DNA of 64,000 nt from Hypanus sabinus (lineage: Eukaryota), in the NCBI RefSeq assembly GCF_030144855.1, contig NC_082711.1, positions 104,098,001-104,162,000 on the forward strand, written 5' to 3'. Of the stretch, positions 6,770-29,250 are shown in pieces. Position 1 is the stretch's first letter. Each line of letters opens with the position of its first letter. The translations under genes were made by a program, and so were the position numbers. Under the pieces are notes generated by a model. The model did no database searches and was not told where the DNA came from. It saw nothing but the letters and a program-made list of their open reading frames with translations.

Positions 6770-7182
6770 AGTACGGTGCAAAACTCTTTGGCACCCAAGA
6801 TTTTTATATGATTTTAAATGGTTTGGCTCCACACAGCCCTGATTTCAACATCATGGAGACTGTCTGGGCTTACCTGGAGAGACAGAAGCAAGCGAGACAC
6901 CAGAGTCTGGGGGAGAACTGTGGCAAGTTCTCCAAGATACTTGGAACAACTAACCAGCCAATTTTCTTGTAAAACTGCACAACAGGGCAACTCAGAGAAA
7001 TGATGGAGTTTTAAAGGCAAAGGGTGGTCACAATAAATATTAATTTGATTTAGCTTTTCACTGTTTACTGCTCTGCATAGTAAAGTTTTGATATCTAGAA
7101 ATATTTCATTTCAATATTTTTAAAGTATCTGTTCTTTACAGATTTTTTTTACGTGTGCCTAAGACTTTTGCACAGTACTGTA
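6770..7182 (+). mobile_element. 3' fragment of a second Tc1-family transposon
   Basis: ORF 6748-6972 gives HSPDFNIMETVWAYLERQ (the Tc1 SPDLNxIE motif); terminus gacttttgcacagtactg followed by TA. Confidence 0.75.
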
Positions 7183-7184
7183 CC

Positions 7185-7640
7185 TTCAGGAACAATATCA
7201 ATAAGACTGAAAGGATACAGGGACAAATCACAAAGACTTTGCCAGGACTGAAGACATGAGTTATAGGAAAAGATCTAACAGGTTAGGACATTGTTTTCCT
7301 GGATTGCAGGAGGATGAGGGGAGGTTTGTTACAAAATTATGAGGACTATCGAGTAAACACAATCAGGCTTTTTCAAGTGAGTTGGGTGGGTGGAACTAGA
7401 GTTCATGGGTTAAGAGTGAAAGGTGAACATTGGGGGAGCTTCTTCACTCAGTGGGTGGTGAGGGTGTGGAACGGGCTGCCACAGGAAGTGGTGGATGTGT
7501 GTTCAATTTCAAAATTTAAGAGAAATTTGGGTAAGTACATGACTGGGAGGAGTATGGAGGGCTGTGGTCTGAGTTTTGGTTTAATGGACTAGCCAGAATC
7601 ACAGGTTAGCATGTTCTGGATGGGCTGAATGGTCTGTTTC
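7185..7640 (+). mobile_element. CR1 LINE 3' end
   Basis: ORF 7314-7592 gives the CR1 ORF2 C-terminus TRVHGLRVKGE...FFTQWVVRVWNGLPQEVV. Confidence 0.75.
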
Positions 7641-8355
7641 TAGGCTGAGGTGTTCCATGAGATTATGACTCTCTGAAATCCAAATAGACCAATTAAAACA
7701 TCCTGAAAAAATGTGATATCCCCTCCCTCTCTCTTTGGGAGGGAGCTGTCTCCCTCGTTTCTCAACACTGTAGGGATGGACAGGGAAGCAGGGGCTGGAG
7801 GCAAAGAGTTGGTGGGTCTGAGTGCCTCGAGCTTCTATGAAAGGCGAGGAGCATGTCAGGATGTGGTAAACACGGCATCAAACGGTGACTGGACAGGAAA
7901 TGGTTCGATGGTCACAGCAAGAGGACAGTAATACGTGCAGCAGAAAGAGGAATGTTATTTACCGTTCAAACAATAATATGAGAGAGGGAGGGAGACAGGG
8001 AAAGACAGAAGGACTTGCATAAAGCAACTGATAGATGTGTTGAAGGAAGAAAAGAAATAATGAAAGAGTTAAATGAGACCAAAAGAAAGACAAGGACATT
8101 GAGGGTGAAAGTGTGTCGGTAGACGGAGGTATAGAGAGAGAGACTAGGTGAGGGAGACTGAGATCAAGGAAGTTCAACAGAAGTTGAGGAAGGCAAAGTC
8201 TGATGGTGAAAATTAGGAACTGAACATGCTCCAATATCGTGTGTGAATCAGCAGATTGGGACGTGACCGTGATAAACAGCATTTTCACACACTGAAAACC
8301 TGCACACATCGAACTGTTCTGTAACCAGAGCTGAAACATTAAAATCTGACCTTAC

Positions 8356-8419
8356 CCAGAAAGATGGCAAATACAAAAGCAGAGTTCAGGCAGAGAACCC
8401 TTTTCAAGCAATTCCACAT
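8356..8419 (-). CDS. Gene A exon 1: signal-peptide exon
   Basis: ATG at 8419 gives MWNCLKRVLCLNSAFVFAIFL+G, then consensus donor CTGG|gtaagg at 8356/8355. Phase 1 joins in frame (G+CC=Ala) to exon 778-458. Confidence 0.82.
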
Positions 8420-8459
8420 CCTCAAGCTTGACTGGTGAGCTTGATGGCCGGGAGATTGT

Positions 8460-8582
8460 TCCAGAAGGAAGTAAGACCAGGAACAGATATATTATAATGA
8501 AGTGAGATGCACGTAATTGACAAAAACATCATACTGGCCCTCCCAGTTCCTTTCGCTTACTCAAGTTTTCCACTTTCCTGTT
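8460..8582 (-). promoter_or_regulatory. Candidate proximal promoter of gene A with ETS-type sites
   Basis: AGGAAGT at 8466-8472; on the - strand AAGGAACTG (~8544-8552) and CAGGAAAGTGGAAA (8567-8580), all just upstream of the ATG. Motif match only. Confidence 0.35.
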
Positions 8583-8781
8583 TTGAATATGTAGCACTTT
8601 CCTCACCAACAACAAATTCTACTTTGCTTTCAAGCATACTGACAAGGATGATTCCACTCTGCTTTGGAAAACCATTCACTATCAGCTCTCAGCAACAGAC
8701 CTCATTTCCGTGGGACATTTCCCCTTCGAGTGCTGGTTCATAGCCATTCCCAGCCTATTTCTAGCTTCTGTTCAAGAAAAG

Positions 8782-9710
8782 ACTGGACAGTCCAGGTGGA
8801 TCAATTGTTTCAGCTGCCCAAGCCTTACTGGACTCTCCAGGTAGATCAATTGTTTCAGCTGCCCAAGCCTTACTGGACTCTCCAGGTAGATCAATTGTTT
8901 CAGCTGCCCGAGACTTACTGGACTCTCCAGGTAGATCAATTGTTTCAGCTGCCCAAGCCTTACTGGACTCTCCAGGTGGATCAATTGTTTCAGCTGCCCG
9001 AGACTTACTGGACTCTCCAGGTGGATCAATTGTTTCAGCTGCCCGAGACTTACTGGACTCTCCAGGTGGATCAATTGTTTCAGCTGCCCGAGACTTACTG
9101 GACTCTCCAGGTGGATCAATTGTTTCAGCTGCCCGAGACTTACTGGACTCTCCAGGTGGATCAATTGTTTCAGCTGCCCGAGACTTACTGGACTCTCCAG
9201 GTAGATCAATTGTTTCAGCTGCCCGAGCCTTACTGGACTCTCCAGGTGGATCAATTGTTTCAGCTGCCCGAGACTTACTGGACTCTCCAGGTGGATCAAT
9301 TGTTTCAGCTGCCCGAGCCTTACTGGACTCTCCAGGTGGATCAATTGTTTCAGCTGCCCGAGACTTACTGGACTCTCCAGGTGGATCAATTGTTTCAGCT
9401 GCCCGAGACTTACTGGACTCTCCAGGTGGATCAATTGTTTCAGCTGCCCAAACCTTACTGGACTCTCCAGGTAGATCAATTGTTTCAGCTGTCTGAGCCT
9501 CACTGGACAGTCCAGGTTGATCAATCATTTCATGTGCTCTCGCCTCACTGGACTATCCAGGTGGATTTGTTGTTTCAGCTGCCCGAGACTTACTGGACTC
9601 TCCAGGTGGATCAATTGTTTCAGCTGCCCAAACCTTACTGGACTCTCCAGGTAGATCAATTGTTTCAGCTGTCTGAGCCTCACTGGACCGTCCAGGTGGA
9701 TCAATTCTTT
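8782..9710. repeat. 45-bp minisatellite (VNTR), ~20.6 copies
   Basis: Unit actggactctccaggtggatcaattgtttcagctgcccgagactt; unit starts at 8782 and 9682 are 900 bp apart (20 x 45). Confidence 0.97.
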
Positions 9711-9872
9711 CCAGCATGCAGGCCAGAAGAAACTACAGTCTAACCAAGCAAAGGGGAAGCAGAAAAACCAGTTCTGTTTGTTTCTCCCCATTTTGTGAAC
9801 TCTGAACTGATTCTTGACTCTGGGACAATCTGGTCAGAGCTATAAACCTGAGACCATTCTCAGAGGAGTAGC

Positions 9873-10401
9873 TGTTATGTAAAATACCATACCTACCAAA
9901 GAAGCAATCTGTCATCTCATTAGACTCTGTCTGGGTTCCCTCATTTAACAGGTTTGAACGAGTAAAGGCACAAATACACAAGGATGGGGAGGCCAGAAAC
10001 ATGAAACACTATTGGTTGTAGTCCTCTACAACGACCAGTAAGAAAGTGACTCAGGTAGGTCAGGTGACCTTGAGCCAATGGGATGGAGATCCAATGATTC
10101 ATCTGATGAGGAACAATATAAGAATCAGGAGCTCCAAATACGGAGGGGGGGAGGGGGGGAGGGGGGGGTGATAACTCTCCAGCAACCGGAGACAAACCTT
10201 TGCGGATAAGGAGGACCCCATGGACACGTGGAGATCGGGACCGTGAGGAATGCCTGGCCAGTGTAGACTCCTTTCCCGGATAATACCTTTCCTCTTCATT
10301 GACTGTTCATGGAGGGTCAGGGATTCTAGTAGGAAGCACACAGGTAGATAGTTTGTGAACACACTTGCTTGTCTGTTGAAACAATAAAAGTTATTTATTA
10401 G
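9873..10401 (+). mobile_element. Left part of the 5' LTR of the retrovirus-like element (start uncertain: 9873 or 10169)
   Basis: TGTTATG at 9873; CCAAT boxes at ~10075 and ~10091; TATA-like aatataa at ~10115; AATAAA at 10383. The LTR resumes at 14053 after a Gypsy insertion. Confidence 0.55.
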
Positions 10402-13400
10402 TGTAAAGGGGGATTCTTCTTTTTTCTTTGTTACTGTGTATGTAATCAAAATGGCTTCTTTGTTTTGTTAAAAGCAGGAATGCTTCTTTGTTGCGAGAGA
10501 GTGCTGGAAGCTTGTTTGGGTTAAAATTTACTGATAACGAGAATTGTATTCCTTTGTAAACCAATTGGGATTAATGTTGTTCTTTCTTCTGAGTCTGTAA
10601 GCTATTGTTGGCCGGCTTTTGGGGAGATCGGCGCGAGGGGGTGAGAGAGAGGATGCGATGCTGTAAGCCGGGCGAGGAATGGACCCCAAGCGGGTTTCTG
10701 AGGCCAGGAGGTACTCCGAGGAGAGGGGATGAAGATAGATGTGCTTGGTTGACCACTTCGGATGGTCCTAAGCTGCGAGTTGAGGAGTTCGGAGGGGATC
10801 GAATGGTGGCCAGAAGACTTCAGTAATTGAGCTCCAATGGTTGTGCACGAAGTGGTTTGGACTTTGATAAGTTTGGCGCCTTTTCTTTATTTTTTTCTTC
10901 ATATATACTGTATTGTTATTAATCACTTAGTTATAGTAACCTTTATAAATTGTACTCATTTAATCACATATGGTGTACTGTCTGTTTTTGGGCGAGGCGG
11001 GGACATCACACAGCATCCACACCAGCTGATTACCCAGTTTGGCGGAGCCGAAGGCTGCTCCCCCTAGACGAGAACAAGCTGAGCGAGCCTGAGGCGACCC
11101 AGGGGGTTACATTGTGGGGGCTCGTCCGGGATTGATTTCTATGGAAGCTGTGTGATCACCCTCTTTAGATTATGCCTGCGGCGAAGAGCTGGTATGCCTT
11201 GGTGGGTGTGCGATTGCTGGTTATCACTGCATGTGTGTTGGGTGAGTGGCAGTGCTTGGCTGAGGGAAAGCGACAGGGATTGGTTGAAAGTTTGAGTAGT
11301 CAGGCAGATGACGTTGTTAGAACTGTCGGGCGCAATTACCTTGAAGTGACAGCTGCCAGTTCTGGGAAAGTGCGGGAAAATGTGTGTGGTTTGACTGGAA
11401 GTCAAATGTCGCAGCTGGGGGGCTTATCGTATCCGTGGCAGGAGATTGGTCGAAAGTTTTTAGGGTATCCCTTTTGGCTAGGGGGGGCAGATAAATTGCT
11501 TGCTTGGTGTGATCTGTCAAGGGGATCAGTTGTTCCGTTGATCCGAGAGGTGTTGGGAAACTTAGAGGAGGCCCAGTGGGGGAACGGCTTGGGGTCTCTG
11601 GGAGAGCACATTCCCAGCAATGTACCAAGGAACTCCTGAAAGGAACAGACCCTATTCCTGAAGGCTTAGTGGAACCAAGCACACAGGTATTGTTACGGAT
11701 GGATGGAAGTCAAGTTAAAGCCATCTTCGGCACCGGGGCGCCGGTTAAGTTGCTGTACAGTTCGTTTTATAACCGTTATTATAAGCATTTACCCTTGACG
11801 ACATTGAGGGCACTGGCAATTTGGGGTACCAGTGCCAGTGATTATCCAGACGACGGTTGTTGGTCAGTGAAAATGGAGTTCTTAGAGGCAAATGTGGAGG
11901 TGACTGAGGTTCATGAATTGTTAATGCTGATGTGTCTGGACACTGTTGAGACAGGCAGCGTTTCGGTTCTGGAGAGAACCAATATCCTACTGGTGTGCTT
12001 GGGGGCCTGCCCGGAGGAGGCGGGTGAGCGCTGTTTGGAGGCATTGTCGATGCACCCAGAGTTTCGAGCTGCTTTTGCGGACGTGTGTAGCAGCATTGGG
12101 CCGATACCGAATTCAAACAAGAGCCGGTGGTGGTACGGACTGGGGTAGGTATCTGAGGGTGAGACCCTCTTAGTGGATGCTGCAAAATACCACGAGGGAG
12201 GGGAGTTGACAGCTGAAGACATCTCGGAGAGAGAGAAGTTGTGGCGACTGGCCCCTGAAGCCGTGGAAGATGTAGGCAGCATGTGTGTGGATTATATTGC
12301 GCTGAAGAGGTGCACTGTCAGTGACCAGAATATGGCCCTGAGGGCCGGAGAGGCGATGGCCTGTCTGAGTGGTGTGAAGTGGTTTAAGGTGCTGGATCTG
12401 AGGAGTGGATGTTGCCAGATCCCGATGAGTGGGGCCAACAAGGAGAAGACAGCTGTTATAAATTCCCTAGGAGTCTTCTGGTCCGAAAACTTGCCACAGG
12501 GCATATCTGGAGCCCCTGCAACCTTCCTGCGGGGCAGGTGGAAGACCATAGGGGATGTGGAGGCGTTTGGAGTTTTGGTGTATGTGGATGATCTCTTGGT
12601 ATTTGGATTTGCCTCAGGAGAATATGAAGTGAGGTCATTGCAGGAGTGGCTGAGAACTACAGAGTTAAAGTGTTTTCTGGACACATGCCAGGGCTGGTGA
12701 AGGTCGCAGCTCGTGAGTGACTGTCTCTACAGAATCAAGTTTGAAATGAAGATAGAGAGACTGGAGAAAGTTGATCTGGAAGAAGTCATGAGGAAGAAAA
12801 AGCTGAAGAGAAGTGCCGTGAATACTGAACAGGAGGCTGAAGAGACTGCAGGAGCACTGCAGTCCATGTGTTTCCATTTGGAGAAGATCAAACAGCAGCT
12901 ACCGATCGCAGAAATGAGGAAGAATACAGATTCGATGGATGACGTGCTGGATGTGTGGTACATGCTGCCTTTTGCTGACTTTCCCTCGATTGTGGAAGAG
13001 ACCTTTGGCCCTTCTCTCACTGAGTCAGGTCTAGTGGGGAGGGTTAGCTGTTTGCAGTGTGGGGCATGAGTGAGAGTTTGAGAGAGGAGTTGGTAGTGGG
13101 CCCAAGGTATCCTCAGTTGTGTCCTAGCCTGAAGGGTTTAGCTGAGGGGGTACGGAGGTCTCAGAAGGGTTAGGGAACTCCCAGATAGTTGGCCTATGTA
13201 GCGCCTGAGGAACAGGGCATGAGGTTTACTGTGTGGGGGAGGAGATGTCACTGTTTGTGCTTAGGTTACGGTGTGTTGGCAGGAAAGGTGGCGAGTTATC
13301 GAATAGTCATGAGGACATGACTTTTATTTGATGGGGGGAGATATAAAGGGGATTTCTTCTTTTTTCTTTGTTACTGTGCATGTAATCAAAATGGCTTCTT

Positions 13401-14052
13401 TGTTTTGTTAAAAGCAGGAATGCTTCTTTGTTGTGAGAGAGTGCTGGAAGCTTGTTTGGGTTAAAATTTACTGATAACGAGAATTGTATTCCTTTGTAAA
13501 CCAATTGGGATTAATGTTGTTCTTTCTTCTGAGTCTGTAAGCTATTGTTGGCAGGCTTTTGGGGAGATTGGCGCAAGGGGTTGAGAGAGTGGATGCAATG
13601 CTGTAAGCTGGGCGAGGAACGGACCCCAAGCGGGGGGTCCGAGGCCAGGAGGTACTCCGAGGAGAGGGGATGAAGCTAGATGTGCTTGGTTGACCACTTC
13701 GGATGGTCCTAAGCTGCGAGTCGAGGAGTTCGGAGGGGATCGAATGGTGGCCAGAAGACTTCAGTAATTGAGCTCCAATGGTTGTGCACGAAGTGGTTTG
13801 GACTTTGATAAGTTTGGCGCCTTTTCTTTATTTTTTTCTTCATATATACTGTATCGCTATTAATCACTTAGTTATAGTAACCTTTATAAATTGTACTCAT
13901 TTAATCACATATGGTGTACTGTCTGTTTTTGGGCGAGGCGGGGACATCACACAGCATCCACACCAGCTGATTACCCAGTTTGGCGGGGCTGAAGGCTGCT
14001 CCCCCGAGACAGAAACGAGCTGAGCGAGCCTGAGGGGACCCAGGGGGTTACA
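10402..14052 (+). mobile_element. Non-autonomous Gypsy LTR retrotransposon with two ~710-bp LTRs
   Basis: LTRs 10402-11111 and 13342-14052 are highly similar; PBS at 11115; PPT atggggggaga before 13342. Degenerate gag, PR ([15 protein letters not shown]) and RT ([23 protein letters not shown]); no integrase seen. Confidence 0.92.
11115..11132 (+). promoter_or_regulatory. Primer-binding site, tRNA-Pro
   Basis: TGGGGGCTCGTCCGGGAT, 3 nt after the LTR end; identical to the classical tRNA-Pro PBS. Confidence 0.9.
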
Positions 14053-14114
14053 TCACTAAATACAGATTCTCTGTGCCTTACTAATCTTTATTACAAGGGG
14101 TGATTCTTGTAACA
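14053..14114 (+). mobile_element. Right end (U5) of the split 5' LTR of the retrovirus-like element
   Basis: Ends in tgtaaca, immediately followed by a PBS. Confidence 0.7.
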
Positions 14115-14118
14115 GAAT

Positions 14119-14136
14119 TGGCATCCCTGGGTGGGC
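14119..14136 (+). promoter_or_regulatory. Primer-binding site, tRNA-Asn
   Basis: TGGCATCCCTGGGTGGGC matches the complement of the vertebrate tRNA-Asn 3' end (TGGCGTCCCTGGGTGGGC) at 17/18. Confidence 0.85.
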
Positions 14137-14399
14137 TTGAGGATAAACCACTTTGTTCAGTGAGACACTCGAGTTCAATCACGTAGGTGATGAACAGAGA
14201 GATTTGGGGCTGGGTGGTTGGCAGTTACTAACCCAGGATGAAGAATTCAGGAAATTCTGCATGTCCACAGGACTTCGATAGTTTTGATTGGAGAGGATCC
14301 TTCAGAAATATGTGTTGGGAAGTGGTCACAATTTGAGAAGTCTGCCAGTCACTCTGGGTGTGAAGGGAGAACTGCTGGGGATGCCCTGTGGAAAATCGC

Positions 14400-16040
14400 C
14401 CAAGGAAAGTTTAAACAGTTACAAAACCAGTAGCTTTGGCTTTTTATTGAGGATTTGATAGAATTACAACAAAAAGATCAGGCAGAACAGCACAGATCAG
14501 AAACGGGAAATAAATGTCTGCATAAAGCAGAAGCCGAGCGAGAGGGGTTACAACAGGAAATTCTAGAATATCAGTGTAAAGTAGAAGCCGAGTGAGATAG
14601 TTTAGAAGGAAGACACAAAGGTCTCCAAAAGGAGGTCAAAACCTTTAGAGAAATGGTTACTGATTTACAGTGTCAGAGAGGTATAGACTTGATACATATG
14701 AACCAGTTTCAGCTGAAGTGTGAGAAATTACTTACAGAAAAATGTAAACTAGAGGAAGCAGCTGAACTAGCGAGGGATGAAGTGGAAGAATTAAGGAAAC
14801 AGTGCAGAGATTTAAAGACGGCGATGAATGTAGTTCAGAAATCAGCACAGGAAAGACAGAGTAACACTGGCCACCTTGCAAAGTGTTTAAAGCAGATTCA
14901 AAAGCTGCAGGACCAATTTGCTGCACAGCGAGGAATAAAATGTGCTTTTGGATCTGAATTTTGGTGAATATGGAGATATTAATTGACATGATTCAGCAGA
15001 TGAAGCTGCTAGATACAGTTACGATAATTACCAGGAACCATTTCCCGAGGAACTCCCAGGGACTCCCTACCAACGGAATCCAGTGCTACCGTCTACATGA
15101 TGAGCACCCCTAGTTACTATCAGAGAGGAGTAAGCAAATCAAAATCAGAATATAACACACACCACACCGTTTGGGGTACAGCAGCTTCGAGATATTGCTA
15201 AGGACATCGGGATATGTGTGCTCGGAGACGACCCTCGAGAGCTTTTCCAAGCAACTAGACATTAGAGAATAATTCATAGCCTCAACGATTCTGAGGAAAG
15301 AAGACTGTTTATAATGTGTTTACACCAAAATATACCATCAGCAGTTCCAGATATACAACGACACGATGGGGGAACAAGTGAGGATCTGATGAACGCAATA
15401 GTGACTGTTATGGGAGTTAACAGAGGGGACCTGGTAGGCGTGCTAACCAGATCTGATCAGAGGAGAGGTGAACATCCCACTGCATTTGCATCCCGTTTAC
15501 GGACAGTGTTCCAAGGGGTTTATGGGACAACATTAGAGCGGGACCATTTAGGACCAGAGACCTCAAACAGGTGGCTGAGGACACTGGTGTCTCACTGTAC
15601 TGATAAATCTAAAGAGGCATTGGAAATGTTTGATCCTTCTGAACCCACACGTACTGAGGCATGGGTACTGAGGAAAATGAGGGGAAAGGAGATACAAAGA
15701 CCAGCTCAACCCTTTAATGAGAAAGAGATGCCTGTTAAAAGTCCTGCATACATGATGCTCGGAGAATTGAGGGTAGGGGACCCACCCCAAGGATATCCCT
15801 GCCACGTTATCAAGGGGAGGGAAGGGCAGAGAAATGGAACAGGGCCAGTAACAGGGAGAACTGTAGGTGGAGTAGTTAAACGCTAAAACTCTGGTCAAGA
15901 GGGACACATTAAGAGAGAATGTCCAAACCTGAGACGAGAAAGAACAGAGCAATGCTGTTTCCCTTGGAGGGGTAACATAGATGGAGCCCACAAAATAACA
16001 TGGTGGAGACACCACTGTCCAGGGAATTGTACCCTGAGCC
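14400..16040 (+). pseudogene. gag: gag of the retrovirus-like element (coiled-coil N-terminus, capsid-like region, decayed zinc knuckle)
   Basis: ORFs 14653-14967 (coiled-coil) and 15314-15886; *NSGQEGHIKRECP at ~15883-15925 is a decayed CCHC knuckle. Confidence 0.7.
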
Positions 16041-16069
16041 TCAATGATGGTGTCAGGCCTCACCAATGT

Positions 16070-19000
16070 GGGTTTGTGACACAAGGTTGGATGAAACTGG
16101 AAGACCTCTAGTGAGTGGTAGGGTCGGAGGATGCCCCGTTACCTCTTTATCGGACACTGGAGGATCCCAAACCACCATCAGAACCACTAATATCAATAAC
16201 GTAAATTGGGAAATACAAGGTCAATTGCCCTAAGTGGATTCACAGGACATTCACAAGTGGGACATGTCAGTGTACTGTTGGAGGTAAGGATAGGAGACAT
16301 CGCATTGGAGCATTCAGTAGTGTTGGTGGAATTACCCAGTGAGCAGGAACATGTACTGGGGTGTGAATACATGGCCAAAGTGGGGCTTTGTTTTGACCCA
16401 GTTCAGTGTATGATTTGGCAGATGCCAACTGCCATGAATAACATAACCACATGCAGATCCCAGTAGGAGAATATCAGGATAGAATATGCACAATGGGTGA
16501 AATGTGGATAAAACTGGAGATGAGCAATGATCAGAAGGTGCAGCAAATTATTGCAGAGAACTCAGGGGCATTTGCAAGAAACAAGCATGACTGTGGAAAG
16601 ATGTCTGGCAGTGTGTGCATTCAAGGTCCTGACCTCAAAACACAGAAGCAATATGGGTTTCCCAAAAGAGGAAGATGTGGGTAAGGTAATCAGCTTTGGT
16701 ACACAAGGGGTACTGAGGTCAATAGCCTCCACTAATAACTCATCCATACGGCCAGTGAGGAAACCAGATGGTAGTTGGAGGTTGACAATCGACTATTGAG
16801 AGCTGAATAAAGTAACTCTGTTAACCGCCCCAACTGTAGCAACTAACCCGGAGACAGTGGTCAAACCAATGAAAGAGCACAATGGTTCACAGTTTTTGAC
16901 ATCAATAATGGATTTTAGTCTATCCACTCAAACAAAAGTTTGCATTTACCTTTCAGAGACAGCAGTGTACATGGACTGCCCTACCACAGGGGTTCCATAA
17001 TTCCCCATCTGTTTTTCACTTGAGCCTAGGGGAAAAATTAAAATGATTTTCAAAGCCCAAGTGCTTGGTACAATATGTAGATGATATACTTCTGCAGTCT
17101 GAAACCAAGCAGGAACATTATCAGCTACTGACAGGACTGTTACAATTCTCACTTGCTTTGGGATTTAAGGAAAACCCTAAAGAAGCACAGGTGATGAAAC
17201 AAGAAGTTAGTTACTTGGGAATAGTCTTGACAGCCAGAAAAAGAGAAATTGATAAGGAAAGAGCAGAATAAGTTATGAAACTACCTATTCCCTGAGACCT
17301 GAAAGGGTTGTGGTTATTTCCACTCAAACAGCTCCTTTAGTGGAGTCACTGAAAAACAATGTGGTTGGGAATGGGAACCGGGTCACACCCAGGCCATCAC
17401 AGCTCTGAAGCAAGCATTGGGCACTGCGCCTGCTTTAAAAACCCAAATCCAAATGAAATATTCTCATGGGAGTTGTCTACAACTAATACCACTCTCTCAG
17501 CAGTTCAATTACAGGAAACACATGGGAAGTTAAGACCAGCAGCATATGCATCACACATGCTCTCACTAGTAGAACAGGGGAATCCTGTATGTGAAATACA
17601 CTTGTTAGAAGTTTTCTGGACAGTACGATATTTTGCCTACATTGTGGGACTTAATCCACTTACAATATTGACAGAACACACCCCCATACAATTACTGTAC
17701 GGTGGAAGGATTGAAGATGGTTCAGTAAGAAAAACAGAATTGCTAGGTGGACATTGCTGCTGCAAGAAAGAAATATTAATGTAAAGCGAGTACGCTCTAG
17801 CTGAAAGTTAGCCGGTAACCTGGTGTACCAAGCAAGTGAACATGAGTGTCAGGTTATGATAGCAAATGATCCCATGGGGCCATTTGTATCAACACAAAAA
17901 GGAGGGGGTGGAAGCAGATCAGGGAAAGTAATGGCAGAACAAAGACACAAAGGAAAAAGAAAAATCCTATTTTAAATTTTTTGTAGATGGCCCCTCATCA
18001 GTACAGGATGGTGAGAGGAGAACCTATGTAGAGGATGAACATGGACAGGAAAGGTATAGTATAGCTATAAAGTTACCCAAAACCATGAGTACACAGGCAG
18101 CAGATTTAGCCGCTGTGGCATATGTGGTTAGCCCCCAGAATGTTTTCCGCCAGGATCAGTCATACACTCTGACAGTGTGTGCATTTGTTACAGCCTTACA
18201 GAAAATCTGACTGCAGGATCATTTGTTTCAGCTGACAGAAAGCCCCTCCCATCTGCTGCTCTGTTGCAGTATATATTTGAGGAGACAAAGGGAAAAGAGT
18301 ATGGAGTCATAAAGGTGAAGTCCCACTGTAAATGATCTCCTGAGGAGAACAGAAAAGCGGACAAATTAGCGAAGCAAAGTGCTTTATTTGGGCAGGAATG
18401 GCAGCCACAGGTTGGAGAGATTGGGAGGCAGAAGGAACAACAGATTGCAGTTGTGGATTTAACTGAGGAACAGAAGAAAGATAAAGGATTAAATAAATAG
18501 ATAGAAGGGGCACAGTCTGAAATATACAAAGAGCACAAGGGAGTGTTTGTCAAAGATAGAGTCGTCCTTCATGAAGGAAAGTTTCTGGTTCCAGAGAGAG
18601 GAAGAAACCAGATGATTCATTGGTACCATGATCTATAGGGACACCAACACCCTGGAAAAGATGAAGGAAGTGGACTGGTGGCCTAAGATGAAGGATGAGG
18701 TAGAGCATTATATCAAAAATTGCTTGAATTGTGCACAATATAATCCTGGTAGAAATGTAAAGGAAGGAGCCCTTCGACACACCAGACCAGTGGAAGGGCC
18801 TTGGACTAATTTGCAGATAGATTACGTTAGTTCCTTACCACCCACCCCAGCAGGGTACAAATATGTTCTGGTTGTAATAGATACCTTTACAATGTGGGTG
18901 GAAGCTTTCCCAGTAAAGACAAACACAGGAAAGGCCACTGCAACAATCTTATTGGAAAGGATATTCACTCGCTGGGGACCACCCCAGAATATCGAATCAG

Positions 19001-19445
19001 ATCAAGGCACACATTTACGTCCCACATAATGCAAGATGTGATGGCACTTTTAGGGATCAAGCAGAGGTTTCATATATCTTATAGACCTCAGTCTAGTGGA
19101 ATTGTGGAAACGATGAATCAAACACTAAAAAATATGATTGCAAAAATGGTGCAACAACATGAACAACATGGCAGGTAGTTTTGCCTTATGTTCTGTTGAT
19201 AATATGAAATACAGTGGCATCATCAACAGGTTACACCCCTTATAAACTCATGACTGGAAGGGACATGAGAGGATTAGAGGAGCTGTTATGGTTAGATTTG
19301 TCAGAACCCAAGATTGATGGATTGTGTCAGAAAAGTGGGTACAACAGTTGGTAGAGAGAGTGAAAGAGATCAATTATGTGGCAGCCCACCAAACAGGAAA
19401 GAAGTAACAGAGTAAAGCCTACTTTGAGTGAAAAGTCAATCCCAT
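16070..19445 (+). pseudogene. pol: pol of a retrovirus-like element: PR, RT, tether RNase H, second RNase H, integrase
   Basis: PR SDTGGSQTTI (16150); RT RPVRKPDGSWRLTIDY, LPQGFHNSPSVF (16981), QYVDDILL; tether LRPAAYASHMLS (ORF 17359-17784); second RH FVDG..STQAADL..HSDS..KVKSH..ENRKADKLAK (17978-18385); IN GPWTNLQIDY..IDTFT..SDQGTH..QSSGIVE. Many stops and frameshifts. Confidence 0.88.
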
Positions 19446-19449
19446 TCAG

Positions 19450-19920
19450 ATTCCCATTCCCATTCAGTTATGTCCATACGTGGCCTCCTCTACTGCCATG
19501 ATGAGGCCAAACTCAGGTTGGAGGAGCCGCACCTCATATACCATCTAGGTAGTCTCCAGCCCCATGACATGAACATTGAATTCTCCAACTTCTGGTAATG
19601 CCCTCCCTCTCCCTTCCCCCATTCCAACTGCCGATCACCTCCCTCATGATTCTGCCTTTTTCTACTACCCACAGTGCTTTCCCCTTACATTCCTTCTTCA
19701 CCTTTCTTGCCTATCTTCTCCCTGCTTCCCCTCCCCCTCCCCTTGATCTTTCCTCTTATTGCCTTCTCCTTCCCCCCTCCCCTTCCTTCTTCAGTCCTGA
19801 CGAAGGGTCTCGGCCCGAAACGTTGATTGCTCGTTTCCACAGATGCTGCCCGACCTGCTGAGTTCCTCCATTGTGTTGTACGTGTTGCTTTGACCCCAGC
19901 ATCTGCAGTGTACTTTGTGT
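19450..19920 (+). mobile_element. Penelope-like element 3' fragment
   Basis: Remnant EE.HLIY.LGSLQP..MNIEFSNF* followed by a CT-rich tract and the terminal repeat with a hammerhead core. Confidence 0.75.
19792..19829 (+). ncRNA. Minimal type I hammerhead ribozyme motif
   Basis: CAGTC-CTGACGA-A-GGGTC-TC-GGCCC-GAAAC-GTT-GATTG: core boxes intact, stems I and II can pair, palindromic ACGT stem III. Confidence 0.7.
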
Positions 19921-20342
19921 TTATGACTCAGCAGAGACCTCTAGTGACTGAAGTGATAACTGTAATGAGGAGATCGGTCAGAGACTTGGCAAAACTTGTC
20001 CCTTTAAAAACGAAGAGAATGAAAGCACGCGAGTCTGATGATGGAGGGTATTAAACGAAACAGGAGGCTTGTCATCAAATACCAGATCTGGAAAATAGTT
20101 GATAAGTGGTTCAGGGAATTTCCACATCCTGAAAAAGCATGTGGAACAGACCTGGGCTGAACTAAAACGAATTAAGAATATGCAGAAATTGCATCTGTAT
20201 GATGGCATTTAAATTGTAGCCACCATGTGAACAAGCCAGAAAATAAACCTAATGACACAGCGGGTGGAGGGTGGTGTAGGAGACTACAGCTGGTTGGGAT
20301 GCTATTAAGACCTGGTTGGAACGACAATCGCCAATTCAGGCT

Positions 20343-23300
20343 TGTTGTGATGTGAGTATTATTAAAAGTAAGTTAATACAAATCGTGAAGCTGCTGGTGA
20401 CAAGAGGTTGGTTCCGGGATTGTCGGGGTTTTACTTCCGGTATGCATTGTATGTGGTTCCATCACCCATGCCGCACGAGGTACCTGGAAGCCCCGTATTG
20501 TAAATATCATTTGCCGTCCCAGATAAAGATCTTCTTTTGGCCATAAAATTGTCGAGTGGTCCTTTACCACATTTTTTTGGCGACGAGGTGAACTGGTTTT
20601 GTGAACGTGATGGCCCGTTTCGAACAGCAGCTGTGAGCAGACGAGGAGCCTCGCGTTCCGGTGGCTACGTTCAGGTCTATCGATGAATTTGTGGAGTGAA
20701 AAGAGGACTGGCTGGAGTACAAGGAAAGGTTGGGACACTTTTTCTGTGCTAATGGAATTACTGAGGAGGCTAAGAAGCACACTATTCTCCTGAGTGTGTG
20801 TGGGGTAAAGACTTACAAGCTGATAAAGAACTTAGCCACACCACGGAAACCGGGAGAAATTCCATATGATGAACTGGTCAAGCTCATGGGGAACCACCAG
20901 AATCCTTCGGTGACACTCCAACAGTGTAAGTTTCATAGACATTTCAGGAAGCCGGGTCAGTCTGTGGACAATTTTGTGGCCGAGCTTCGGCAGCTGTCGG
21001 AGCATTGTGATTTCAGAGCCGTGTTGGATGACATGCTCCGTGATAGATTAGTATGCGGCATTAATAATGACATTGTATGATGCCACTTGCTGGGGGAACC
21101 CACCGATGACTTTCAAGAAAGGCCTAGTGTTTGCCCAAGGCATGGAGATGGCTGCTAATAAGGATATGCAGAAAGGACATGGGGGGGTGTCGCAGTCGGT
21201 GGCAGTGTTTTCGGTGTGGAGGGACACACTATGCAAATGTTTGCAAATTCAAAGACACTGTCTGCCATGCTTGTGGCAAGAAGGGACATTTAGCTAAAAA
21301 GTGCAGGAGCATAAAGGGTGAGGTTAAGCCTGGGCAGGGGAAAGCTCAGCAGACTCAGGCAGCCACACACCACCTAGGAGAAGCAGACGAGGAGGCAGCG
21401 TGTGCCCACAACATGTTTGGAGTGGAAACGGATGAGCAACCACCTGAACCACATGGTGCCACAGTTACCGTCAGGGCATTAAGTCTGAGTCAACTACCTA
21501 TACCTGAGGCACTTGCTACTACATATGTGCCTCCAGAGACTGTGTTTTCATTGGAGAGGCTGTCAGAGACACCTGTAAAGGTGACCCAGATCAAGCAGTG
21601 GACAGGAGGGACCCAGTCCTGTGCGAAGTCAAGACTTTCCTTTTACAAGGTTGGCCCAGAGTAGTGGAAGCAGAGGAACTGAGGCCTTATGACAAACGTG
21701 ACAGAACCGAGTCTGCAGGATGGCTGTATTATTTGGGAGGCAAGGGTCATCATGCCTCCCCCTGGCTGTTCACAGATTGTGGAGGAAATTCATGAGACTC
21801 ACCCAGGGGTGTCTCGGATGAAAAGCCTTGCAAGATCCTACGTCTGGTGGCCAAGAATGGATCAGGTTCTGGAGAACAAGGTAAACTCATGCACACAATG
21901 TCAGACCAATCAGAACATGGCACCACCAGCTCCTTTGCACCCATGGGAGTGGCCAGACTACCCCTGGTCTAGGCTACATTTGGACTTTGCTGGCCCCTTT
22001 ATGGGGCAGATGTTTCTTGTAATGGTAGATGCACACTCCAAATGAATAGAAGCTCACATGATGAGCAACATCACAAACCCCTCAACCACAGACAAACTCA
22101 GGCAAGTGTTTGCAGTCCACGGGTTGCCTGACTCTCTGGTCACTGATAATGGCCCGTCGTTCACCACTGAGCTGTTCAGTGAGTTCATGCAGCAAAATGG
22201 CATTCGTCACATTCGGACGGCCCCTTTCCACCCAGCCTCAAATGGTTTGGCTGAGCGGGCTGTTCAGACAGTGAAGGAAGGCCTGAAGCGGATGACAGAG
22301 GACACTCAGCTTTCATGTTTCCTGTTTAAATACTGCCTCACACCGCAGACTACGACTGCACGCACTCCAGCAGAGATACTCAAGATTGGACCTGCTGCGC
22401 CCAGACACGAAGGCAAAAGTGGAGAGAAAGCAGAAAAAGCAGAAGGAGGAACATGATCAAAATACGTGAGAGAGAGACAGTTAAAACCAGATGACAATGT
22501 CCATGTGAGAAACTTCAGCAGTAGCAATAATCAGCAATGACCACCTGGGGTTATTCTTAAGCAGAGTGGTCCAGTCTCCTACGTTGATAAACTGACTGAT
22601 GGACGTGTTTTCCACAGACATCAGGACCACGTGCACCTGCGTCATGATACAGGCTCAGAGGTAGACAGTTCCACGGAGTTTCCCATGGTGAGACAGACTA
22701 CTATGGGAACAGGTCCACCAGTGACTTTGCCGGAGAGAGAGAGAGAGAGAGAGAGACACTGGGAGAGGGATAGGGGTCCCCTGAAGAGGATGGACATTCT
22801 CACACGGGCACACAGACCCCTCTCATGTCCCCAACTCCAGATTCACCCAAAACATCCTCACCAGCGGTGCCTGCTGGGTCACTGGGGGTAGTGCGCAGAT
22901 CACAGCGCACTCGCAAACCTCCCGACAGACTGAATGTTTGACTGGACAGTTTTTGTTGTGTTTGACTGAATGTTGAATCTGCCACGTTTTTCAGGTGTTT
23001 TGTATTGGTAAAATGTTGCTGAGACTCCAGTATAAGTTTCACGGGTATTCAAGATAATGACATCACTGTTTTTATTTCCCAGTTCTTTTCCATTTGGGGA
23101 ATGTTGGAGTTTAAATCGGGAGAAGTGTTGTAATGTGAGCATTATAAAAATAAGCTATTACTAATGAGGATAATGGTAATGTAGCAATACTCCCGCTAGG
23201 GGAAGCTGTTTGTAAAGAGAGGCTGGTTCCGGGGTTGGGGGATTTTACTTCCGTTTTCTTGTCCGGTGTGCATGTGTATAGCTTCTCCGCCATGCAGTAC

Positions 23301-23411
23301 GGTTCAGTGAAAGCCTCTGTATGTAAATATCGATTTTGCCGTCCCAGATAAAGTTGTCCCTTTGGGCATGAAGTTGTCGAGTGGTCCTTTTTCAAATTAG
23401 AAGTTACCACA
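20343..23411 (+). mobile_element. Internally deleted Gypsy (Mag/K02A2.6-like) LTR element, gag plus integrase only
   Basis: Diverged LTRs 20343-20571 and 23126-23411; PPT cgggagaag; gag FFCANGI..LRDRLVCG with two Zn knuckles; IN H2C2 (HETHPG..C.QC) and core (LHLDFAGP, VTDNG, SNGLAER). Confidence 0.88.
20578..20588 (+). promoter_or_regulatory. Primer-binding site, tRNA-Ser(GCU)-type
   Basis: TGGCGACGAGG, 6 nt after the LTR end. Confidence 0.7.
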
Positions 23412-23419
23412 GTCACCTC

Positions 23420-25030
23420 CTCCAAGCCCCAGAGACCTCCCTGACTCTTAACCCCACGCCAACCCCATTAGACCTCTCTCTAATCCCAATCCAACCCCCA
23501 TCTCTGTAGCAGTCCCAGACTCGACAGATTCCCCCTGTACCTGTTACAGCCTCCAGACCCTATATTACTCTATGCCTTTTACTCCCTCCAACCCTTATAG
23601 ACCTCTGTCTCAGTAACTCCCTCCAACCTCTATAGAACTCCCTTTGACAGTCTCCAGACCATACAGACCTCTTTGTCTCAATAACACAGCTCGAAACCCT
23701 TTTGACCTCCCTCTCTGTAACACGCCTCCAATCCCTATAGACTTTCCTGGCTCTGTGACAGTCTCCAGACCAGAGAGATCTCCCTGTCTCTGTAAACCCA
23801 ATAGAACCCTTCAGACCCCCTCTCTGTAACCCCAGTCTAATCCCTATAGGTGACCCTGTCCCTGTAACAGTCACCAATCTCTGCTGATCCCCTCTCTCTG
23901 TAAACCCCTGCAACCTCTACAGACATCCCAGTCTCAGTTACAGTTTCCAGATCCTATAGACCTACATATCTCCATAACTATCTTCAGTCCTTTAGACCTC
24001 CCTGTCTCTGTAACCCCCACCATACATATAGGTCTCCCTATCTCTGTAACCTCCTCCAACTCTCATACAATCCCCTGCCACTGTATCCCATCGAACTACT
24101 CCAGACCTCCCTGTCTCTATATCCCCCTCAAATGCCTACACACCTCCCTGTGTCTGTAATCCCCTCCAACACCAATAGACCTCGCTTTCACTGTAACACC
24201 CTCCAACCTCTATCCCTGTAACAGTCGCCAACCCTCAAGTGACAGTCTGCAGAACTGATGGGCCTCCATCTCTATAAACCCCCCCTACCCCCTATGGACC
24301 CCCCTGTCTCTGTAACAGTCACCCAATTGTGATAGACCTTTCTCTATCTGTAAACCAACTCCCTCTCTCTCTGTAACCACCTGCAACATCTATAGACCTC
24401 CCTATCCCTGTAACAGTCTCCAGACCCTATAGTCCACCCTCCCTGTAACACCCTCCAACACATATACACCTCCCAGTCTCCATAACCCCCTCCAAAACCT
24501 TCAGACCTCCCTGACTCCGTAATCCCTACAACCCATATAGACCTCCCTGTCTCTGTAACACCCTCCGGATCCCTGGAGACCTCCCTGCCTTTGTAACAGT
24601 CTACAGCCCCTGGAGACCTTCATGGCTCAGTAACCCACTCCAACCCCTATAAACCTCCTGTGCCTGTAAACCCTTCCAACCCCTACAGACCTTATCACCT
24701 CTGTAACCCGCTCCATCCCCTATAGACCTCCCTGCCTCTGTAACAGTCTACAGCCCCTGGAGACCTTCATGTCTCAGTAACCCACTCCAACCCCTATAAA
24801 CCTCCTGTGCCTGTAAACCCTTCCAACCCCTACAGACCTTATCACCTCTGTAACCCGCTCCATCCCCTATAGACCTCCCTGCCTCTGTAACAGTCTACAG
24901 CCCCTGGAGACCTTCATGTCTCAGTAACCCACTCCAACCCCTATAAACCTCCTGTGCCTGTAAACCCTTCCAACCCCTACAGACCTTATCGCCTCTGTAA
25001 CCCGCTCCATCCCCTATAGACCTCCCTGTC
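23420..25030. repeat. C-rich satellite (~35-bp degenerate units) with a 147-bp higher-order repeat
   Basis: Recurrent tagacctccctgtctctgtaac; anchor ctacagcccctggagacc recurs at 24601, 24748 and 24895. Confidence 0.9.
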
Positions 25031-26420
25031 TCTGTAACAGGCTCCAAACTGGTGAACTCTCCTCCTCGGGAAATGGGGTTTCAATGAAGGGTTTAAGGAA
25101 TGCAGAGACGGACAGTCTTCCTCATCGTACTCCAGATCACTGCTCAGGCTCGTGTCGGGGAGCTCGGATCCCCTGGTTAACTGGAGAACCAGGTAACCTG
25201 GATGAGTGTTTCCCTCTCCCGGTGGAGGTAGTGCCGCCTCGACTTGTTACCTCCTCCCAATGGGACAGGATCCGGCAGGCATGGGGTGGCCAACTGGAAC
25301 CTCGAACTGGGTCAGTTTAGTTGTTCAGTTGGCATGATTTTGTAAGGTCTACAGGACGGTGGGCAGTGTCTTGGGCCATTTTTACCCATTTTCTTGACAT
25401 GCTTTAGTCAATGTATATCTTTGCATCCCGTTCATTCATTCCACCAGCCCAGGGGTGGGGTAGATCTATGTGTCGCTACAAGGTCCTCTAGAGTGGGCCA
25501 CACGGGAGGTGTAATTTTACACACAGCTTGGACAGGGACCTGTCGGTTCACGTCTCCCACACCAGCCTGATTGTCTGCTGTATCTGCTGTCACGTTGCCC
25601 TGTGTTACGGGATCCGGGTACCAGTGTGTGTGTCGCACTTGATTATTGCTAAACTATTTGGCAGCTGCACTGCCTGTAGCAGGTTCACCATCAAACTAGT
25701 GTGTTGTGTGGGCTTCCCAGATGAAGTAATAAATCCCCTATTTTTCCACAGGGTCCCGAAGTCATGTACTACCCCAAAGGCAAAACAAGAGTCAATATAG
25801 ATATTGATGGTCTTCCCGGTGGCGAAGGTACAGGTCCGGGTTAACACACAGGACTCACCTGCCTCAGAGGATGTGCCGAGGGGGAGGGCTGATGTTACTA
25901 TCTCCTCTACATTCAGCCAACCATGGGGTTCATCAGGACCAGGGAGAGGCATTAAAGGGGAAGATTTAGGGCTGTTGCTGTGTGAAAAGAGAGGTTCGGT
26001 TTACATAACAACATCACGTCTTAGCCGGTTCGGCGAGTTACGGTCAAATGCTGTTGCTGCTGAGTTGAGGAGCGGCAGCACTGAGTGGGGAGTGAGAACG
26101 GTGCAGCCATGATCTAAGACCAGTGGCGTGGCCTTTCCCACCATAATGATGGTGGCGGCCACGGAACGGAGGCAGGTAGGCATGCTGCAGACCTCAGGGG
26201 GCAGAAGGGTCGAATAGTTGGCTACAGACCACCAAAGTCCACCATGTTCTTGGGACACAACAACACTAGTAAAACCCTCCTTTTCATTGACAAAATGCAG
26301 GAAGGGCTTATTATAGTTTGGTAACCCTAGTGCAGGAGCCTGTGTCAGAGCTTGTGTCAGGCCGGTGAAGGACTTTTCCATTTCCTCTGTCCCGTGGATG
26401 ATTTTGAGCGCAGTTTGTAT
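25028..26420 (-). mobile_element. Class I (epsilon-like) endogenous retrovirus pol remnant
   Basis: ORF 26001-26519 gives the tether (QAPALGLPNYNKPF, MPTCLRSVAA); ORF 25605-25952 gives RNase H (INIYIDS..FGVVHDFGTLWKNRGFITSSGKP..IIKCDTH); integrase traces at 25330-25500. Confidence 0.8.
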
Positions 26421-29250
26421 CAAAGCCTTTTTATCAAATGGGACCTTTTCAGAATGGCACTGAGGGCAATCTGTTGGATGAGGACATAGCCGCCCGGGCC
26501 AGAATCCCTCGGGAACCACTCACCTGCCCCTTGGAGGCCCGGGGCCTGGACGGTAGGCTGCTGGCTTGGGTAACCCACCGCAGATCACCCTTAACACTAA
26601 TCCTGTCCGGTAACCACCAAGAGAAGGTTAGATTCGATCTAATCCACTCGCCTCGAGCCCCGGTGGTACTAGGATACCCACAATCCCCAGTTCGACTGGA
26701 CTGCCGGGAGGATAGCCAGGTGGAGTTGGGCATGCCCCGCCCACTGTCTACGGTCGGCCCCACCTCCCAGGGAGGCTCCGGCGACCCCACTGGTCTCCGA
26801 AGTATTTGACCTCTCCAGGGTACCTGCTGAATACCACGACCTGGGACAGGTGTTCAGCAAACAACGAGCACTTGCCCTGCCTCCGTACCGCCCTTATGAC
26901 TATGCCATCGACCTTCTCCCTGGGCCCCACCACCCACCAGTTGCCCCTATAATTTATCGCGGCCAAAGAGGGAGGCCATGGAGAATTACCTGAGCGAGTC
27001 CCTCGCAGCGGGCCTCATCAGGCCCTCTTCCTCCCCTGTGGCCGCGGGGTTCTTCTTTGTGGAAAAGAAAGATGGATCGCTTCGAAACTACATCGATTAT
27101 CGAGGCTTGAACAATATAACCATTAGGATCAAATACCCACTACCTCTCATTAGTTCAGCCTTCGACCCGCTACACGGAATGACCATCTTTTCCTAGCTGG
27201 ACCTACGGAATGTCTACCACCCCGTTAGGATACGGGAAGGGGATGAGTGGAAGAGAGCCTTTAACACCCCTCTGGGCCATTTTGAATATCTTATAATGCT
27301 GTTTGGCCTTACTAATGCTCCCGCCGTTTTCCAGGCCTTCATCAATGATGTGTTTAGGGACTTCATTAGCTATTTTGTGTTCATCTATCTAGACGACATC
27401 CTGATCTTTACCCGCAGCCTGCAAGAACATGTTGGCCATGTCCATAGAGTCCTTCAGAGGCTGTGGGAAAACCAACTGTTTCTGAAGGCGGAGAAATGTG
27501 AGTTTCATGTCCCTTCGGTCAGTTTCCTAGCATACATCATCGAAGATGGGCAGGTGAGAGCGGGCCCCGAGGAGATCCATGCGGTGGAGGAATGGCCTAG
27601 GCCCACGACCCATAAGCAACTCCAGCGGTTCCTGAGGTAAGTGAACTTCTACCGCTGTTTTATCAGGGACTTCTGTCGGGTGGCAGCCCCCCTCACCCAG
27701 CTTACCTCACCCTCCACACCCTTTTCTTGGGACACCGAAGTGGAAGCTGCATTCACTAACTTAAAGAGACGCTTTACCACCGCCCCCATCCTGATCCATC
27801 CGGACCCATCCCGACAATTCATCGTGAAGGTGGACACTTCAGATTCCGGGGTAGGAGCAGTCCTGTCCCAACGGTCAGGTACGGACGAAAGGGTTCACCC
27901 CGTGCTTTCTTTTCCCACCGATTGTCCCCCATGGAACGGAATTATGACGTGGGAAATTGAGAGTTATTGGTGGTCAAACTGGCGCTGGAAGAGTGAAGGC
28001 ACTGGCTGGAGAGGGCAGAGCATCCATTCGTCGTCTGGACAGATCACAAAAACCTGGGGTATATTCAGACCGCTAAGCACCTGAACTCCCGCCAGGCCTG
28101 TTGGGCATTAATCTTTTGGCGATTCAAGTTTACCATCACTTACCGCCCAGGGTCCAAGAACGGAGAGCCGGGCACGCTCTCCCGCCAATATGATTCCAGG
28201 GAGGACACCTCCAGTCCAGAAACGACCATGCCACCCCCCCACCTCCATCCTGCGTGGTGGACTCCCTCACCTGGGAGATCGAGTCCGTGGTAAAGGAAGC
28301 CCAACGGGATGACCCAGACCAGGTAAGGGACCCAGCAACTGCATCTTTGTACCCAAACACATCCAATCTCATGTCTTCCAGTGGGGGCATGTGTCTCGAA
28401 TTGCCTGCCACCCCGGAAGTAACCGAACCTTGACACTCCTGAGAAGACATTTTTGGTGGCCCTCCATGGAGGCAGACACTCGCTCGTACGTCGCGGCACG
28501 TCCTGGGGGAAGGCCTCTCATCGACAGCCTGCGGGATTGCTTTACCCCCTGCCTGATCCTGGCCGCCCATGGTCGCACATCACCCTGGACTTCGTCACAG
28601 GTCTTCCCAAATCCCGCGGAAATACGACCATTCTCACCGTGGTAGACAGGTTTTTGAAGGCTGTGCATTTTGTGGGCCTACCTAAACTCCCCACTGCCCA
28701 AGGGACCGCTGACCTCCTTGTCCGCTATGTTCTCCGTCTCCACGGAATCCCCACCAACATCATCTCAGACCGAGATCCCCAGTTTGTCTCCAAGGTGTGG
28801 AGAGCATTCTGCCAAGCATTGGGTGCATCAGTCAGCCTATCATCCAGCTCACACCCCCAGACAAATGGACAGACGGAGCAGATTAACCAGGACCTGGAAA
28901 CAACTTTGCATTGCGTGACCGAAAACAACCCAGCCACCTGAACGACCAATTCCCATGAGTCGAGTACACCCACAACTCCCTCGTGGAAAGTCCCCATTCG
29001 AGTGCTCACTGGGAGCACAAGAAGCACAAGAAGCAGAGATTGCAGTACCATCCGTCCGCGATCATATCGACTGGTGCTGCAGGAGAGACGTGCAGCCCTA
29101 GCCGATCACTACAAGGACACAGCCGACTGACACCGGACCCCGGATCTTGACTCAGCCTGGTCCCAGTTCTACACTCGCTACGGAGATCCTGCCTCTGCGT
29201 CAGAGTCCTGCACTTGGGTTCGTTTTTCTGACACATCCGTGTCGCACACT
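26420..29250 (+). mobile_element. Sushi/Tf2-type Gypsy pol (PR-RT-RH-IN), disrupted
   Basis: [83 protein letters not shown]; LTR-like end at ~29250. Confidence 0.9.

Follow-up and report, generated by a model that had tools for sequence, protein, structure and literature searches.

Snakehead retrovirus (SnRV) belongs with the clade Huo, or class III, endogenous retroviruses (ERVs) in the accessible text of Xu et al. (2018, PMC6001957), and an elephant shark lineage, CmiERV lineage I, clusters with it in that of Han (2015, PMC4422223), so that SnRV-related ERVs were already known in cartilaginous fish. For lokiretroviruses, the accessible parts of Wang and Han (2021, PMC7947760) report none in six chondrichthyan genomes, find that loki and canonical envelope proteins (Env) are not significantly similar, and leave four scenarios for the origin of Env open. 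Here we compare with these systems a retrovirus-like element in a 64,000-nucleotide stretch of the genome of the stingray Hypanus sabinus (GCF_030144855.1, contig NC_082711.1, positions 104,098,001 to 104,162,000, forward strand). We call the whole of this stretch the window and number positions within it. A preliminary description, made from the letters alone, had regarded the element as lokiretrovirus- or spuma-like, or as a member of another deep class III-like lineage.

With good confidence, we read the element as a dead provirus from a multi-copy, deep-branching family of canonical stingray retroviruses. The ERVs of frog and coelacanth have the reverse transcriptase (RT) nearest to that of this family, SnRV being the nearest named virus; the family env is homologous to loki env, with the predicted fold of the fusion protein F of paramyxo- and pneumoviruses. 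Judged by its sequence, the element is a deep canonical retrovirus of class III grade with a loki-related F-type env; it is not a lokiretrovirus, and a spumavirus label is not supported. New here is a family env of 745 intact codons at G000:C28, which adjoins what remains of a decayed pol and is likely domesticated.

Placement of the polymerase

Our RT tree held 88 rows, and approximately unbiased (AU) tests were run on a 66-row subset, 22-23 redundant or long-branch rows being dropped per AU test set. The references were L061, whose RT matches the SnRV row of the alignment in PMC7947760 (in its accessible part, as for the other rows cited from it), the loki-type rows L062 to L064, named loki relatives from fish, lamprey and frog, and foamy, epsilon, gamma and delta viruses. 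In this tree the clade of the element is fully supported (100/100) and joins the Pol of frog and coelacanth ERVs (97/85). The canonical-retrovirus branch that holds it has support of 100/99 by RT, rising to 100/100 when the tether is added, and loki RT forms a separate clade (100/99). The AU tests on RT reject a grouping of the element with lokiretroviruses (p=0.0009), with six rows of mammalian foamy viruses (p=0.007), with class I ERVs (p=0.0003) and with Gypsy (p=2e-5), and on RT plus tether the loki grouping is again rejected (p=0.0005). The loki- and spuma-like labels are not supported, and the nesting of RT in a Gypsy or class I clade, for which a check had been proposed, is rejected. 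The remaining suggestion, a deep class III-like lineage, is supported, as is an elasmobranch host. By identity, the RT of family copy L033 is closest to frog and coelacanth (54% each) and SnRV (49%), followed by walleye dermal sarcoma virus (WDSV, 39%), loki (37-38%), murine leukaemia virus (MuLV, 37%), feline foamy virus (FFV, 35%) and Gypsy (30%). The RNase H tree places the element on the SnRV, gamma and epsilon side (93/94).

The RT motifs of the window copy, PVRKPDGSWRLTIDY, LPQGFHNSP and YVDD, are of retroviral type and lie where they were first read; the Gypsy motif near 27300 given for comparison as MPFGL.NAP actually reads MLFGLTNAP. The LPQG motif, once counted in favour of lokiretroviruses, argues against them, because seven loki rows in the supplement of PMC7947760 read PFGY.N whereas the element and SnRV read LPQGFH. 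Searched as an exact pattern, the loki RT motif occurred 0 times in viral contigs and 0 times in the animal's own genome, a search that would miss decayed copies and does not show absence.

Other assignments were discarded. A tether with a second RNase H was considered as a loki marker; it is present here but common to all retroviruses and therefore not diagnostic. Neither are the tRNA-Asn primer binding site (PBS) and the coiled-coil Gag, because foamy-like viruses and SnRV have them. Class I (gamma/epsilon) ERVs were rejected on the RT grouping and on the lack of a gamma-type Env (HH <=2%), and Ty3/Gypsy (Metaviridae) on the RT grouping and the two RNase H domains found here. ERV4, in the accessible text of Chong et al. 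(2014), lacks both a zinc finger in Gag and the GPF/Y motif and has a 5-bp target site duplication, whereas our family has a CCHC knuckle, GPY and a 4-bp duplication.

Membership in the foamy-like ERVs of fish and sharks (FLERVs, clade Tu) appears improbable to us. The best PDB sequence match of the element is indeed a foamy protease-RT (134 bits, against 90 for MLV), but there is no SnRV-type RT among the PDB matches, and SnRV itself scores 210 bits against 135 for foamy. Also speaking against it are the rejected grouping with mammalian foamy viruses, the CCHC knuckle (8/11 copies) and the in-frame gag-pol stop (16/20 copies); foamy Gag is not known to have a CCHC knuckle, and foamy Pol is expressed apart from Gag. 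As far as the accessible parts of the sources go, an Asn PBS is known in NviFLERV-1 and galago foamy virus, foamy Env is F-like (Fernandez et al. 2024, PMC11468914), and shark and frog FLERVs cluster together, all of which would suit a FLERV; by eye, however, the FLERV rows in the alignment of PMC7947760 are less similar to the element than the SnRV row is.

The provirus in the window and its family

The copy in the window is an ordinary dead provirus, in which the following parts, beginning with the 5' long terminal repeat (LTR), are recognised:

9717..10401, + strand: 5' LTR, first part (U3/R side); 79-84% match to the paired LTRs of copy L027, and 9723-10402 matches the 3' LTR of L045
10402..14052, + strand: Gypsy-type LTR element that inserted later into the 5' LTR and splits it, not a viral part; own LTRs at 10404-11112 and 13344-14053, Kimura two-parameter (K2P) distance 3.9%
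14053..14114, + strand: last 62 bases of the 5' LTR, ending in ..TAACA; 84-93% match to the 3' LTR ends of L027, L028, L029, L031, L032 and L037
14119..14136, + strand: PBS for tRNA-Asn(GTT); 17/18 bases match the genome's own tRNA-Asn genes with CCA added
14261..16047, + strand: gag, broken by stops and frameshifts, ending in TGA
~14400-14950, + strand: N-terminal coiled coil of gag
middle of gag, + strand: capsid-like part, assigned by position only and without a Pfam capsid match
~15880-15925, + strand: degenerate CCHC knuckle of gag; CX2CX4HX4C is intact in 8 of the 11 other family copies showing the motif
16045..16047, + strand: in-frame TGA at the gag/pol junction, likely read through; TGA there in 16 of the 20 copies covering the site
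16048..16433, + strand: protease, broken, with a DTG motif at 16153; tblastn E 2e-7 to the intact relative P0001
16640..17340, + strand: RT, frameshifted; Pfam RVT_1 E 5e-8; tblastn over 16704-17292, ~50% identity to P0001
17366..17786, + strand: tether (degenerate Ty3/Gypsy-type RNase H); Pfam RT_RNaseH E 1e-9 (17353-17781) and RT_RNaseH_2 E 2e-8
17980..18383, + strand: second RNase H, broken, with an FVDG motif at 17980; 18159-18383 aligns to an intact relative, E 2e-10
18582..19445, + strand: integrase with H2C2 and DDE core, the C-terminal GPY module lost; Pfam Integrase_H2C2 E 4e-9 and rve E 2e-10
19446..19892, unstranded: repeat inserted later, by which the provirus is truncated; matches window 1819-2304 in inverted orientation at 64%

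The order of tether, second RNase H and integrase, the Asn PBS and the coiled-coil region of Gag had all been correctly recognised in the preliminary description. Of the extent given there, 14053..19445, the end is right, but the start is really near 9717, because the nested Gypsy element splits the 5' LTR. In the duplicate L023 the sequence reads through the site of this Gypsy element, which is absent there. The provirus breaks off within integrase, at 19445, and a search of the window found no env and no 3' LTR of the element. Compared with Pfam, the N-terminal piece of the window Gag matched generic coiled-coil families only, below the cut-off, and the second RNase H piece at 17932-18207 alone matched nothing; copy L035 matches Pfam RNase_H (E 2e-17), and in other family copies a GPY motif follows the integrase core. 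The insertion at 19446, which may be LINE-like, is common to the duplicate L024, whereas L021-L023 instead run on into the env region.

The search of the genome for fuller copies, proposed at the outset, was productive, yielding copies with paired LTRs and with env. DNA searches returned 343 candidates with RT and 232 with env, 40 being scored in each, and 20 RT-selected and 20 env-selected copies were fetched for study. The family layout is LTR, tRNA-Asn PBS, gag, in-frame TGA, protease-RT-tether-RNase H-integrase with GPY, env, polypurine tract and LTR. The LTR is ~850 bp long and bounded by TG..CA; the three copies with near-complete paired LTRs show K2P divergences of 1.8, 2.4 and 12%. The 4-bp target duplication is exact in L035 and L040 and has one mismatch in L027. 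Reverse transcription would have been primed by tRNA-Asn, and the recurrence of the in-frame TGA makes it likely that Pol was produced by read-through.

In six of the 20 RT-selected copies, env is deleted with one shared junction; five have other internal deletions, three kept more of env and six are uninformative. The shared junction occurs in 3 of the 4 near-duplicates of the window copy, which therefore probably lost its own env before it was truncated. Env-deleted derivatives, the window copy among them, would then have multiplied within the genome, and reinfection was likely not involved; duplication, splitting and truncation of the window copy would have come afterwards. The near-duplicates, L021-L024, match window 7128-23149 as segmental duplicates of provirus plus flanks (91-94% identity). 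Their later insertions differ from one to the next, and the duplicates place the Gypsy insertion into the LTR after the duplication.

In L027 (G000:C27:169376213-169386212) the LTRs are only 1.8% apart, yet the coding interior is heavily decayed, with an RT branch length of 0.29 against 0.03-0.05 in L033, L035 and L039. This mismatch may reflect gene conversion between the LTRs or mobilisation in trans, and LTR ages may mislead. At G000:C25:11.6-13.4 Mb, ~10 env-bearing matches with near-equal scores lie roughly 100-350 kb apart and form another duplicated block.

Around the provirus, the window carries a tandem array (8782-9711, units of ~90/45 bp) that immediately precedes the 5' LTR, a second array of 37-bp units (23400-25060), two further Gypsy-type elements (20343-23398, with LTRs ~73% alike, and 26918-28929) and, on the minus strand at 25626-26384, a fragment matching the MuLV tether-RNase H (134 bits) that is probably a piece of a class I ERV.

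The envelope gene of the family

An env resembling the F protein of Mononegavirales, for which a check had been suggested, was found in sister copies of the window element. Copies L041, L045 and L060 carry it between integrase and the family LTR; in L043 and L046 it follows integrase directly. In L032, L037 and L056 a basic (furin) cleavage site precedes the fusion-peptide-like GLLEL(V/L)GAGYAS, and downstream come heptads, a beta region that contains cysteines, a stretch rich in Trp and a transmembrane segment. Among 1.84 billion protein representatives the env has 19 homologs, and all 16 that are named come from sharks or sawfish. A 67-amino-acid stretch of P0189, a sawfish TRP-channel gene model, is 52% identical to the family env and is either an ERV fragment taken up as an exon or an artefact of annotation.

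The env profile matches loki Env with HH 97.3% (E 2e-11, 279 columns, 21% identity), compared with 87% for SnRV Env, 16% for WDSV, 1% for foamy and <1% for gamma. A second env alignment gives 96.8% for loki, 85% for SnRV, 8% for WDSV, 37% for foamy and 2% for gamma. The beta-rich part alone reaches 94.8% against loki Env, with reversed controls at <1%, and SnRV Env can be aligned over 198-284 columns. Single-sequence phmmer searches also connect the family env to loki Env (E 7e-7 and 2e-9 among 242 reference open reading frames). Sequence searches of env against the PDB gave nothing significant.

Low-confidence predicted structures point to F proteins. With both env models, all top PDB matches listed by Foldseek are paramyxo- or pneumovirus F (best E 7e-6 and 7e-9). 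VIA gave Z 9.2 for F of human parainfluenza virus 3 (rmsd 8.2, 266 aligned) and Z 8.3 for foamy Env (4.7, 202), both over env residues ~225-540, and Z 8.7 for F of Newcastle disease virus (4.5, 233); residues 1-229 are modelled below pLDDT 50. Matches to viral models (BFVD) include WDSV (E 1e-4), walleye epidermal hyperplasia virus 1 (WEHV-1, E 1e-3) and feline foamy Env. An F-like fold is therefore no loki marker, and an F-like env alone cannot mark the element as loki; the model matches also suggest that fish epsilonretrovirus Env may be F-type. Cell entry would have used a furin-cleaved, trimeric F-type protein, of which the N-terminal 220 residues may be the receptor-binding part.

Several observations tell against this account of pol and env. 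The labelled references lack fish and shark FLERVs, Odin, class II viruses, CmiERV-I and CGIN1. The link to SnRV is weak (88/67 in the 88-row RT tree, with no firm position in LG+G4 trees), and an RT grouping of the element with SnRV is merely not rejected (p=0.33). AU tests on RNase H reject neither the SnRV nor the loki grouping (p=0.08 each). Integrase departs from RT: it groups with loki, Gypsy and frog/coelacanth integrase (96/88), and AU tests reject its grouping with SnRV (p=0.004) but not that with loki (p=0.06). As for env, Pfam PF00523 does not match it, though weakly matching both loki Envs; the two AlphaFold models are of low confidence (pLDDT 52 and 46; TM-scores 0.13-0.39); a wide VIA search with model 1 returned generic helical hairpins only (Z at most 9.3), F being absent from the top 50; and the window copy itself has no env.

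These points bear on two rival readings. That the element is a chondrichthyan lokiretrovirus strikes us as very improbable. The tether and second RNase H, a coiled-coil Gag N-terminus resembling the 'smc' region or Bik-1 Gag, the homology of env to loki Env, the unrejected integrase grouping and an RNase H-integrase stretch that scores best against loki (258 bits, against 170 for foamy) would all fit. However, RT and RT plus tether both reject it, the RT motif is not the loki one, SnRV Gag likewise combines a CCHC knuckle with a stretch resembling a coiled coil, and the defining screen was negative in all six of its chondrichthyan genomes, as far as its accessible text reports.

It is less unlikely, though still doubtful, that the element is a recombinant in which a class III gag-RT acquired a loki-derived 3' module (integrase and/or env) in an ancient fish, rather than keeping an ancestral F-type env. 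Its env is nearer to loki Env than to SnRV Env, frog/coelacanth integrase is sister to loki integrase (98/92, in a tree that does not include CGIN1 itself), the element-SnRV integrase grouping is rejected, and the named env homologs are all elasmobranch. On the other side, env and loki Env are only ~20% identical, the alignable SnRV Env and the structural matches to WDSV, WEHV-1 and feline foamy Env indicate a shared old fold, and Gypsy integrase also falls inside the integrase group, as an ancestral state would have it.

We thus retain the deep canonical provirus family as our reading. Its lineage supplies the similarity between loki and canonical Env that Wang and Han (2021) did not find. 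A canonical-side Env that aligns to both loki and SnRV Env favours one of two histories: the common ancestor already had an F-type Env, or env passed long ago between the groups. The question of Env origin thereby becomes testable with an env tree. Tentatively, and at slightly less than an even chance, ancestral retroviruses may have entered cells with an F-type Env that this lineage, lokiretroviruses, SnRV and foamy viruses all inherited, that was later replaced in gamma- and betaretroviruses, and that live-bearing stingrays domesticated as an analogue of syncytins from another protein class.

An intact env and the comparison with known systems

At G000:C28:118004210-118006423 on the minus strand (L118), one family env of 745 codons has remained intact. 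It has no stop, is identical to the annotated Hypanus sabinus protein P0198 and encodes a signal peptide, an RRRR furin site and a transmembrane segment; it is ~45% identical to the decayed proviral env. P0198 and its counterpart P0210 from Hemitrygon akajei, of another stingray genus, are both 745 amino acids long and 96% identical, with 29 differences. Some 700 bp upstream, all that is left of pol is a decayed RNase H-integrase remnant, at 24-45% identity to intact relatives.

Against a 2.9-kb contig of another organism, gap-free over most of the reading frame, the gene shows 22 synonymous and 19 non-synonymous substitutions over 629 codons (dN/dS 0.34, p=5e-4); these are the 41 listed differences, a few near the contig ends being left out. 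Five broken paralogs in the same cluster have dN/dS of 0.79-1.11. The cluster, at G000:C28:117.66-118.40 Mb (L119-L123 and others), holds at least six duplicated env paralogs, and the five scored are all frameshifted and evolve neutrally.

The intact frame, its identity across genera and its lower dN/dS therefore make it likely that this env is kept as a host gene, a candidate domesticated F-type env. That it is instead a proviral reading frame that survived by luck seems to us unlikely. The orthologs are only ~2-4% apart, a neutral frame stayed free of stops after 50 substitutions in 14% of simulations, only the listed differences could be scored, and the gene sits in a duplicated cluster, all of which would be compatible with chance. 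Luck alone, however, fits poorly with a dN/dS so far below that of the broken paralogs, with the reduction of the adjoining pol to a remnant, and with the preservation of the full length in two genera. As far as can be told from sequence, an env intact and under selection in two stingray genera is thus a natural candidate for a co-opted fusogen.

Among known systems, the frog and coelacanth ERVs whose Pol is annotated 'NYNRIN-like' (P0001-P0007) have the nearest RTs (51-54%), the same domain order and a bootstrap grouping of 84-97% with the element, but none is among the 19 env matches. SnRV has the most similar RT of any named virus and shares the coiled-coil-like Gag N-terminus with CCHC, the in-frame gag-pol stop and an alignable Env. 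It differs in that its integrase groups elsewhere and its Env reading frame exceeds 1000 amino acids, against 745 here, and its sister relation to the element is not firm. In the accessible part of the CmiERV supplement (PMC4422223), four short DNA motifs had no match, which is a motif check and not an alignment.

Lokiretroviruses have in common with the element the tether and RNase H, the coiled-coil N-terminus, the broad integrase group and, in loki L063, the in-frame stop junction; their Env is F-type, has an RXKR-type site and is detectably homologous to the family env in sequence. They differ in RT, the element lying outside their clade, and in env, where the family has ~220 extra N-terminal residues and no PF00523 match. 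Foamy viruses resemble the family in the F-type fusion core found by VIA, in the Asn PBS of some members and in the coiled-coil Gag, and differ in the rejected RT grouping, in the CCHC knuckle and in-frame gag-pol junction of the element, and in a weak Env similarity (HH 1-37%).

A literature search, with most subscription journals outside its reach, found no description of the stingray C28 gene, nor of any SnRV-related ERV of sharks or rays whose env is F-type. A screen for chondrichthyan syncytin-like Env (bioRxiv 10.64898/2026.05.06.723177) required, in its accessible text, syncytin similarity, an immunosuppressive domain and a CX6-7C motif, and in the same part of its main text the terms Hypanus, Hemitrygon, stingray, paramyxo, loki and snakehead are absent. 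Being F-type, the C28 gene would likely fail such a screen, and syncytin-based screens would likely miss its class. It nevertheless resembles captured env genes such as syncytins, percomORF and the chondrichthyan syncytin-like Env, in that an intact env stands beside a decayed pol and is conserved across related hosts.

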